A DNA stretch of 64,000 bases, from assembly GCF_044324785.1 (NCBI RefSeq), contig NZ_CP172127.1; one strand, given 5' to 3'. The translations under genes were made by a program, and so were the position numbers. Positions 52,780 to 53,182 of the stretch are shown here, piece after piece. The notes beneath the pieces were generated by a model. That model did no database searches. It was not told the DNA's origin and was given only the letters and a program-made list of their open reading frames with translations. The stretch comes from Escherichia coli. Its GTDB lineage: Bacteria; Pseudomonadota; Gammaproteobacteria; Enterobacterales; Enterobacteriaceae. How positions within the stretch are numbered: position 1 is the stretch's first letter; every line of letters starts with the position of its first letter.

Positions 52780-53040
52780 AATCGGACACTCCCTCGCCTG
52801 TCATAATGATTAGAATATTTAGCACTGATAACGGACTCTAATTATATACCCCACTTAAATAATAACAAACAAAATCAACATGAAATATACATTCATTTAA
52901 TCAATATAAAATTATTCTCTAAAAATATATTTAAGTTGAATGGTTCGATATCATTATTGAATTTTAATAAATGAGACAACAAGCGAGAGTTACGCACTTA
53001 CGCCAGAGTAAAATCATTGAACAGAGAAATAGCGGGATTT

Positions 53041-53078
53041 AAATGCAAAAAAACCGCAAAATTAAAAATCTTGCGGTT
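53041..53078 (-). terminator. Rho-independent terminator downstream of tRNA-Asp
   Basis: Hairpin aaccgcaa-N11-ttgcggtt, followed on the minus strand by a T-run (plus-strand caaaaaaa). Confidence 0.6.
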
Positions 53079-53105
53079 CTCTGAACTCATTTTCATGAGT
53101 GAATT

Positions 53106-53182
53106 TGGCGGAACGGACGGGACTCGAACCCGCGACCCCCTGCGTGACAGGCAGGTATTCTAACCGACTGAACTACCGCTCC
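53106..53182 (-). tRNA. aspV: tRNA-Asp (GTC)
   Basis: Reverse complement reads GGAGCGGTAGTTCAGTCGGTTAGAATACCTGCCTGTCACGCAGGGGGTCGCGGGTTCGAGTCCCGTCCGTTCCGCCA, the tRNA-Asp sequence with encoded CCA. Confidence 0.95.

Follow-up and report, generated by a model that had tools for sequence, protein, structure and literature searches.

An island between aspV and yafV of Escherichia coli that appears to include yafT and the terminator of the tRNA is probably exchanged by homologous recombination

The interval between aspV and yafV in this E. coli chromosome (positions 20421-53105 of the window, the whole 64-kb stretch of DNA that was analyzed) is filled entirely by an approximately 32.7-kb T6SS-1 (subtype i1) island. 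Our comparisons with other genomes indicate that the island is probably not self-mobile, that its edge lies in yafT and a terminator of its own, and that it exists as one of several discrete haplotypes that are swapped by homologous recombination and then decay by deletion. The window is reversed in orientation relative to K-12. Within it, the region at which this study started (52780-53182) consists of aspV and the 326-bp spacer upstream of yafT. The genes that frame the variable interval are the following.

16458-18980, plus strand: fadE, with ivy next and then yafV.
19641-20420, plus strand: yafV (CN_hydrolase, Pfam match), a conserved backbone gene marking the far boundary of the hotspot.
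Beyond aspV: dnaQ and rnhA, the flank genes on the aspV side.
61329-61405: aspU, a second tRNA-Asp, at the end of the rrnH operon.

We compared this arrangement with 80 related loci, which are the dnaQ loci of GTDB species representatives with 10 kb of downstream sequence each. The backbone order of dnaQ, aspV, a variable segment, yafV, and fadE was found in most of them.

The island contains a secretion gene cluster and an adjoining Rhs module.

30240-50132, plus strand: T6SS-1 core operon, from Pfam matches and the N3 annotation.
29025-29543, minus strand: hcp, from Pfam.
26707-28815, minus strand: vgrG, from Pfam.
22411-26640, minus strand: rhs, from Pfam.
22012-22410, minus strand: ORF of 132 aa with no family match, a putative cognate immunity gene from its position only.

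The core operon is ordered tssB, tssC, tssE, tssF, tssG, tagH, tssJ, tssK, tssL, tssH, vasI, tssA, tssM, vasL, hcp. Pfam matches in the cluster were to VipA, VipB, TssF, the FHA C-terminal domain, VasE/TssK, DotU, VasI, IcmF/TssM, VasL, Hcp (twice), and VgrG, and the genes tssE, tssG, tssJ, tssH, and tssA were named from the annotation of the 99.9 to 100% identical N3 cluster. The full tssA-M set is thus present with hcp and vgrG in the conserved order of a T6SS-1 (i1) cluster; the i1 label was taken from the literature and not from a phylogeny of our own.

Between the core genes and yafT lies a segment whose content differs among strains.

49964-52124, plus strand: swappable Hcp-linked cargo cassette, 33% GC, made up of the 3' third of hcp, three ORFs, and the 3' end of yafT.
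50111-51049, plus strand: cargo ORF of 312 aa, part of the cassette.
51046-51501, plus strand: cargo ORF of 151 aa, with a subthreshold LprI match in the Pfam scan.
51498-51854, plus strand: cargo ORF of 118 aa, convergent with yafT.
51932-51971, no strand assigned: GC-rich hairpin between the 118-aa ORF and yafT (fold of -21.1 kcal/mol, z = -3.2).

The cassette has no homology to SE11 or K-12, both of which carry yafU-ykfM in that position; a literature search for a link of ykfM or yafU to T6SS found nothing relevant. At least 80% of positions 51000-54500, which span part of the cassette, was covered in 364 of 5,426 genomes. Positions 51855-51978, which the initial annotation had taken to be the end of the island, are in fact the convergent intergenic region that contains the hairpin.

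The tRNA-proximal edge of the island was located by comparing the sequence 3' of aspV among loci.

53106-53182, minus strand: aspV, an intact 77-nt tRNA-Asp(GTC) identified with ARAGORN, with its 3' end (53106) toward the island.
53211-53239, minus strand: sigma-70-like promoter upstream of aspV (TTGACG, 17 nt, TAATAT), a pattern match only, scoring 9/12 in a consensus scan.
53047-53078, minus strand: intrinsic terminator of aspV, a hairpin and U-run directly 3' of the tRNA, identified by folding.

The aspV sequence is identical to those of aspU and of K-12 aspV. A terminator consensus scan near aspV gave no match because the loop of the hairpin exceeds the scanner's limit of 3 to 8 nt, and the hairpin was then found by direct folding. 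Its sequence is AACCGCAA ... UUGCGGUU, followed by U5, with a fold of -23 kcal/mol (z = -4.2) that none of 200 shuffled sequences equaled. The native terminator, CTATTCAGAAAGCCTGAATCAGCAATGATTCAGGCTTTCGTCGTTT, stands immediately after aspV in about 60 of the 80 related loci; the terminator in the window has no homology to it, and neither the native terminator nor the native spacer is present anywhere in the 64 kb. Among the compared loci, the window-type terminator is otherwise confined to the E. whittamii and E. albertii alleles that carry yafT, in which compensatory changes keep the hairpin. The window ceases to match the empty allele and the family-wide native sequence approximately 7 nt past the CCA end, at position 53100, and the first 7 nt or so are common to all three terminator classes, including that of an empty Enterobacter site. 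The tRNA gene and its terminator had initially been described as intact. This is correct for the tRNA, and a hairpin and U-run are present, but judging from these alignments the terminator appears to be an island-borne, nonhomologous replacement of the native one.

What the interval looks like with no island, which we take as its ancestral state, is evident from 20 of the 80 GTDB species loci, in which yafV follows aspV after 55 to 261 bp and yafT is absent. These empty loci include those of Enterobacter, Klebsiella, Kluyvera, Trabulsiella, Pseudocitrobacter, Pseudescherichia, and Citrobacter koseri. The empty allele of E. coli ST131 consists of the yafV stop codon, 98 bp that include the native terminator, and aspV. 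Separate BLAST queries, each tallied on its own and not jointly per genome, detected the empty allele in 757 of 5,426 complete E. coli genomes, a yafT-type allele in 4,291 (in identity classes down to 82%), and tssM in 3,019, 331 of which carry it at only 60 to 80% identity.

Other strains carry other DNA at this site. CFT073 has approximately 100 kb of other cargo at aspV, with neither yafT nor T6SS genes, and a fragment of ISAs1 still adjoins its yafV. A few E. coli and Escherichia genomes have a different T6SS (TssA-TssG-TssF-TssE-TagJ-TagK) behind the native terminator. The first ORFs after aspV in 24 nonempty loci include permease-like ORFs, a repeat-rich, adhesin-like ORF, ORFs matching in size and order the tssA-tssG-tssF genes annotated in an E. 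coli locus of the same type, and one that sits at the position of a gene annotated as DUF4942 in CFT073. The alleles observed are thus empty, T6SS-1 with yafT, a different T6SS, the CFT073 island, the K-12 remnant, and the O145 remnant. Nonhomologous segments occupy the interval between shared flanks, and tract ends fall inside it, as is characteristic of a replacement hotspot.

Whether yafT belongs to the island or to the backbone determines where the island begins.

51979-52779, minus strand: yafT, encoding a 266-aa lipoprotein of Pfam family PF25851 (from translation), between aspV and the T6SS genes.
52780-53046, minus strand: AT-rich region upstream of yafT (from GC content), with a promoter-like site at 52868-52841 (10/12 matches).

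YafT has the lipobox LLAGC, whose Cys19 is invariant among homologs. Its membership in PF25851 rests on precomputed annotation because the copy of Pfam that we scanned gave no match; the family is precomputed for all 120 YafT homologs listed. At aspV, Hcp-VasL-TssM comes after YafT in E. whittamii, a Pseudocitrobacter metagenome-assembled genome (MAG), and Superficieibacter, and in the 80 species loci it occurs only ahead of this T6SS type, with the E. albertii contig ending just past yafT. Away from aspV, YafT flanks Hcp-VasL-TssM or Rhs-VgrG in Hafnia alvei, Salmonella serovars, Buttiauxella, Lelliottia, and Enterobacter cloacae; the Buttiauxella order, YafT-YkfM-YafU-Hcp-VasL, resembles that of SE11. 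Two homologs, in C. amalonaticus and E. fergusonii, have contexts with no adjacent T6SS. yafT is absent from the 20 empty species loci and from the 757 empty E. coli genomes. Given these T6SS contexts and this absence, yafT would therefore be the last gene of the island, and island DNA would start approximately 7 nt past the CCA end.

One could argue instead that the E. coli backbone includes both yafT and the terminator of aspV and that the T6SS was inserted separately between yafT and yafV, an event unrelated to the tRNA. Such a history would fit the finding that 79% of E. coli genomes carry yafT and that K-12 does so despite lacking a T6SS. We nevertheless regard it as very improbable. Besides the empty species and the empty E. 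coli genomes, all of which lack yafT, T6SS genes follow yafT in all three of the aspV loci with enough downstream sequence, and five other genera have YafT beside this T6SS type at a total of four sites other than aspV. In K-12 itself, yafT is followed by remnants of an SE11-type island. yafT is 42% GC and the spacer between it and aspV (52780-53105) is 30% GC, in comparison to about 51% for the flanks, and the aspV terminator of the window is not the native one. The position of yafT between the tRNA and the T6SS genes, which had been taken to separate the tRNA from the island, was confirmed, but yafT itself appears to be the tRNA-proximal terminal gene of the island and not a backbone spacer. 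Homology to other genomes breaks at the 3' end of yafT (52107 or 52125), at its start (52765), and, for many genomes, at 53100. From the recurrence of such breaks, the 3' half of yafT appears to be a recurrent recombination junction.

At the opposite border, the island ends in insertion sequence (IS) DNA.

20585-21876, minus strand: ISAs1/ISEc1 (H-repeat) element of 1,292 bp, with a DDE_Tnp_1 match (E = 6e-28).
20448-20507, no strand assigned: solo duplicated IS end of 60 nt that is 88% identical to 20582-20641, lies 134 nt upstream of it, and abuts yafV.

The element has the DDE transposase, the matching terminal inverted repeats (CCAGGGCAAGATTACGAAAGC and CCAGGGAAAGATCACGTAACGC), and the length of about 1.3 kb that define ISAs1/ISEc1, and it is 96 to 97% identical to the ydcC and yhhI IS copies. 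Three-frame translation placed its transposase in one frame of 378 codons that is interrupted near codon 60 by one premature TAA; the enzyme is probably inactive because of this stop codon. Alignment with K-12 identified the K-12 pseudogene yafF as a fragment of the ISAs1 transposase. Only 27 nt separate the yafV stop codon from IS DNA. The initial annotation had found no duplicated tRNA 3' segment at 20421-20640, which it took as a border; this stretch is IS-end DNA, and the 60-nt duplication within it is a real direct repeat and the only significant one in the region. The solo IS end also serves as a deletion endpoint elsewhere, as the O145 RM8988 allele ends at approximately 20455.

We searched the island for signs of site-specific integration. 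A Pfam scan of the ORFs in 20421-53105 (those of the borders, the cargo, and most of the T6SS, as well as large antisense ORFs) found no recombinase domain; the few T6SS ORFs outside the scan are named as T6SS genes from the nearly identical N3 annotation. The only mobility gene in the island is the ISAs1 DDE transposase pseudogene on the yafV side, an element that the initial annotation did not mention; its statement that no integrase is present holds for the scanned ORFs. In the 24 nonempty loci, the ORFs that come first after aspV do not resemble an integrase in their size or visible sequence features.

Repeats derived from the tRNA were likewise not detected. Apart from aspU, no segment of at least 12 nt from 53040-53230 recurs in the 64-kb window, in agreement with the earlier observation that no tRNA 3' segment is duplicated at the borders. 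The search that had been proposed as a check, for matches to the tRNA-Asp 3' end at both island borders, gave nothing above chance with blastn-short, and no direct repeat linking the two borders rose above the level of shuffled sequence. By either criterion (an exact match of at least 12 nt, or a blastn-short match above chance), a tRNA 3' repeat was absent from the window, N3, and the partial SE11 locus. No 20-mer from the tRNA 3' end, with up to 2 mismatches allowed, recurred within 10 kb downstream of aspV in the 80 species loci. CFT073 was meant as a positive control, with a tRNA-Asp 3' repeat sought at the far end of an integrase-type aspV island, but the two segments covered (240 to 290 kb and 310 to 360 kb) contained none. 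In 5,425 genomes, the number of places found by megablast was a median of 3 and at most 4 per genome, which argues against repeats of at least 28 nt.

Two candidate sequences were rejected. A match of 17 of 18 nt to the tRNA at 638-655, the best off-target match, was attributed to chance; it is on the opposite strand, 20 kb away from the island. The shared stretch of about 7 nt after the CCA end is no proof of an att core, being common to all three terminator classes, and the breakpoint may therefore reflect a constraint on the tRNA trailer.

Of the features of an integrase-borne island, the island in the window thus shows a start at the tRNA 3' end but neither a recombinase nor a distal direct repeat. 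These results support the conclusion that the present copy is not a self-mobile integrative island.

Its origin is a separate matter. An ancestral yafT-T6SS-1 island might have entered the 3' end of tRNA-Asp by means of a tyrosine integrase, with the integrase, attR, and the displaced native terminator later lost through IS insertion and deletion. An island start approximately 7 nt past the CCA end is the geometry that a tRNA-targeting element would leave, with divergence from the native sequence beginning where it would at an attL junction. IS insertion and deletion have visibly eroded the distal end, where two IS ends are present and IS DNA almost abuts yafV, and a lost attR is therefore plausible. 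In addition, in Hafnia alvei an island of this type is found in the same orientation 1.1 kb 3' of another tRNA-Asp, one linked to rrn, although there is no shared homology beyond the tRNA. Even so, we think it rather unlikely that the island arose in this way. Neither an integrase nor a repeat was found in approximately 10 contexts of this island type, which in other genera stop short of the far ends. In the Pseudocitrobacter MAG, an intact native terminator stands between the tRNA and the start of the island; around the Salmonella and Buttiauxella copies, the nearest 8 kb contain no tRNA gene; the Lelliottia and E. cloacae clusters are at a different, DUF554-linked site; and the 7-nt breakpoint may, as noted above, reflect a constraint on the tRNA trailer. 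A site-specific origin would be compatible with the recombination dynamics of the present day.

Those dynamics are apparent in pairwise comparisons. Over the 20.8 kb of 31737-52521, the window differs from N3 by about 12 substitutions and one 18-nt indel (approximately 0.06% divergence), whereas the backbone around this shared tract diverges by 1 to 4%. Dense mismatches resume at 52522, inside yafT, and the ends of the N3 tract map to 31736-32420 and 51822-52522. Compared with SE11, positions 49964-52124 are swapped for a nonhomologous yafU-ykfM cassette, with breaks in hcp and, in yafT, at 52125. A block of 84 to 87% identity interrupts a cluster that is otherwise 97 to 99% identical. Imported DNA might leave a gradient of divergence in its flanks, but none was evident between the window and ST131. 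Recombination was read from the mosaic pattern of identity that a few pairwise comparisons showed.

Two strains illustrate decay. In K-12, colinearity with SE11 extends from yafS/rnhA past aspV, yafT, and ykfM into yafU, after which the sequence jumps to the ISAs1 transposase (yafF). This yafU/yafF junction, which has a 5-nt overlap, is present in 371 genomes. On the basis of this alignment, K-12 yafT-ykfM-yafU'-yafF' appears to be the remnant of an SE11-type T6SS island after an internal deletion. The K-12 yafT locus has been reported to be part of a transcriptionally silenced domain (tsEPOD) (PMC4191405). An independent remnant, in O145 RM8988, retains a 3' gene fragment (probably of vasL), hcp, and yafT, and its left endpoint is at the solo IS end.

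Deletion derivatives such as these could suggest a purely vertical history, in which T6SS-1 and yafT were ancestral to Escherichia and every other state arose by deletion with no horizontal exchange. Several clear cases of deletion are indeed known, and E. coli, E. whittamii, and E. albertii have the island-type spacer and yafT in common at species-level divergence. The empty allele, however, has the family-wide native terminator and spacer, which the occupied allele lacks, and deletion cannot yield it. Together with the near identity of the island to N3 between more divergent flanks and the different T6SS that other E. coli strains have after the native terminator, this makes strictly vertical descent highly implausible. 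With the native terminator and spacer both missing from the occupied allele, no simple insertion or excision could turn an empty allele into an occupied one or the reverse, and whole haplotypes must therefore swap through flanking homology.

In the recombinational exchange that we favor, the aspV-yafV island would be unable to excise or integrate on its own. Haplotypes would be swapped, and their internal modules reshuffled, by homologous recombination, with crossovers falling in yafT, hcp, the T6SS core genes, and the flanking backbone. They would later decay via IS-associated and illegitimate deletions, of which K-12 and O145 may be examples. The initial annotation had favored homologous recombination or replacement at a hotspot over site-specific integration. 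The N3 tract and the SE11 cassette swap bear this out for present dynamics, but the argument it drew from the position of yafT fails.

T6SS islands at aspV that lack flanking repeats and an integrase have already been published for both E. coli and Salmonella. The E. coli T6SS-1 (i1) islands at aspV include the 37-kb island of EHEC EDL933 (z0250-z0267), GI-16 of APEC IMT5155, and T6SS/1 of MAEC ECC-1470. They share with the island in the window the locus, the gene set, and the adjacent Rhs element, and the present island is another copy with no difference in kind; over 51000-54500, the O157:H7 region is 96.7% identical to the window. The published accounts of T6SS-1 that we consulted treat yafT as core or flank, as where the MAEC T6SS/1 is delimited as "yafT to impA" (bioRxiv 10.1101/096479), whereas our analysis places yafT inside the island. 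The refinements presented here (yafT and the terminator as island DNA, the K-12 relics, and the junctions in yafT and hcp) were not found in the searchable literature and are incremental.

Salmonella offers a parallel in SPI-6 and SPI-20, T6SS islands that adjoin aspV as in the window. Different T6SS types were acquired at the same aspV site in Salmonella, where SPI-6 and SPI-20/SPI-21 fall into distinct phylogenetic groups of T6SS (PMC2907695). E. coli, like Salmonella, has a second T6SS type at aspV. In contrast to the window, yafT is missing after aspV from the two sampled Salmonella loci (subsp. arizonae and diarizonae), and the Salmonella serovars with YafT, Rhs, and VgrG carry them at a non-tRNA site.

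The island resembles classical pathogenicity islands with P4-type integrases, such as PAI-CFT073-aspV, in having a junction directly 3' of the same tRNA, atypical GC content, and strain-variable content, but it differs from them in having neither an integrase nor a tRNA-derived direct repeat. The ISAs1 element likewise resembles Rhs-associated H-repeat (ISAs1/ISEc1) elements in its length (1.29 kb), its DDE_Tnp_1 domain, and its position next to the Rhs tip and putative immunity gene. It is unlike them in its premature stop and in the extra solo IS end 134 nt away.

Placing yafT in the island corrects its boundary in comparative papers, in which yafT has been counted as core, and four K-12 y-genes and pseudogenes are accounted for as relics of a T6SS island. 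The locus also provides an example of a nonmobile weapon island that is kept diverse, with effector cassettes exchanged and recombination anchored in hcp and yafT.

YafT becomes a candidate T6SS-1 accessory protein, a hypothesis that derives from gene linkage. Searches for its function in the Pfam and NCBIfam copies that we scanned and in PDB sequences gave no match. Its AlphaFold model has a pLDDT of 60, with a core of 70 to 90, and Foldseek returned weak matches to FlgT, PelC, LptE, and CsgG-type outer-membrane lipoproteins that are suggestive only (TM-scores of at most 0.5). More speculatively, YafT could be an unrecognized, conserved accessory outer-membrane lipoprotein of i1 T6SS-1, carried by an island family that first targeted tRNA-Asp via a recombinase since lost; we offer this combined reading tentatively and consider it doubtful. 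The tRNA-Asp targets in this scenario would be aspV in Escherichia and the rrn-linked tRNA-Asp in Hafnia. If it is correct, all four of the K-12 genes yafT, ykfM, yafU, and yafF would be T6SS relics.

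Pairwise comparison with the strain E. coli N3 revealed a 20.8-kb tract (31737-52521) that differs from its N3 counterpart by approximately 12 substitutions and a single 18-nt indel, located at 41381 within tssH. The backbone around this tract diverges from N3 by 1 to 4%. Judged from these sequences, recombination appears to have recently transferred most of the T6SS operon, the crossovers falling within tssC and within yafT, the terminal island gene on the side of the tRNA-Asp gene aspV. Relative to E. coli SE11, a block comprising tssA and the 5' region of tssM (43347-45340) is only 84 to 87% identical, whereas the rest of the cluster is 97 to 99% identical. 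Further, the tssM of 331 E. coli genomes shares just 60 to 80% identity with the window copy; therefore, deeply diverged T6SS-1 alleles coexist at this locus. Two alternative cargo sets are found downstream of the terminal hcp:

Window, 50111-51854: a 312-aa ORF, a 151-aa ORF (sub-threshold match to LprI), and a 118-aa ORF.
SE11, L006 18330-19733: YafU (304 aa) and YkfM (159 aa).

No confident family match was obtained for either set, and both probably represent effector and immunity pairs.

A different T6SS cluster, encoding TssA (349 aa), TssG, TssF, TssE, TagJ, and TagK, lies directly after aspV and its native terminator, without yafT, in three Escherichia loci:

L087: E. coli LCP30S3_I5.
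L008: E. coli E69.
L009: Escherichia sp. MOD1-EC7003.

Thus, two unrelated T6SS types occupy one hotspot within Escherichia, as is likewise the case for SPI-6 and SPI-20 in Salmonella. In Hafnia alvei, a YafT-Hcp-VasL island (L089 6830-8777) is found on the 3' side of an rrn-linked tRNA-Asp gene, at a distance of 1.1 kb, and is oriented as it is at aspV; apart from the tRNA, this locus shows no sequence homology with the window.

In addition to the native and island-type terminators, a third conserved sequence class, CTATTCGAGGCCATGCTnTTGATTAGCATGGCC followed by TTTTCGGTATGCCATCCAGTA, is found after aspV. It is common to several genera, ahead of varied cargo, and was seen in CFT073 (L004, 8630 onward), S. 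arizonae (L012), and Kosakonia (L064 and L067), among others. A related hairpin is also present at an empty Enterobacter site (L034). In E. coli Ec-U4-19, an IS200C insertion separates yafT from the island-type aspV terminator (L088 11398-11856).

On the yafV side, a 60-nt direct repeat of the ISAs1 end sequence (20448-20641; 88% identity, 134-nt spacing) flanks a 74-nt unique insert (20508-20581) containing a small perfect hairpin (GTGACCG...CGGTCAC). This duplication is absent from K-12 and most other genomes. E. coli O145 RM8988 carries a minimal remnant allele (L097 7821-9632) composed of yafV, a 3' gene fragment that is probably vasL, hcp, and yafT, followed by aspV. Because the left deletion endpoint (window position ~20455) coincides with the solo IS end, the remnant's structure suggests an origin by IS-adjacent deletion.
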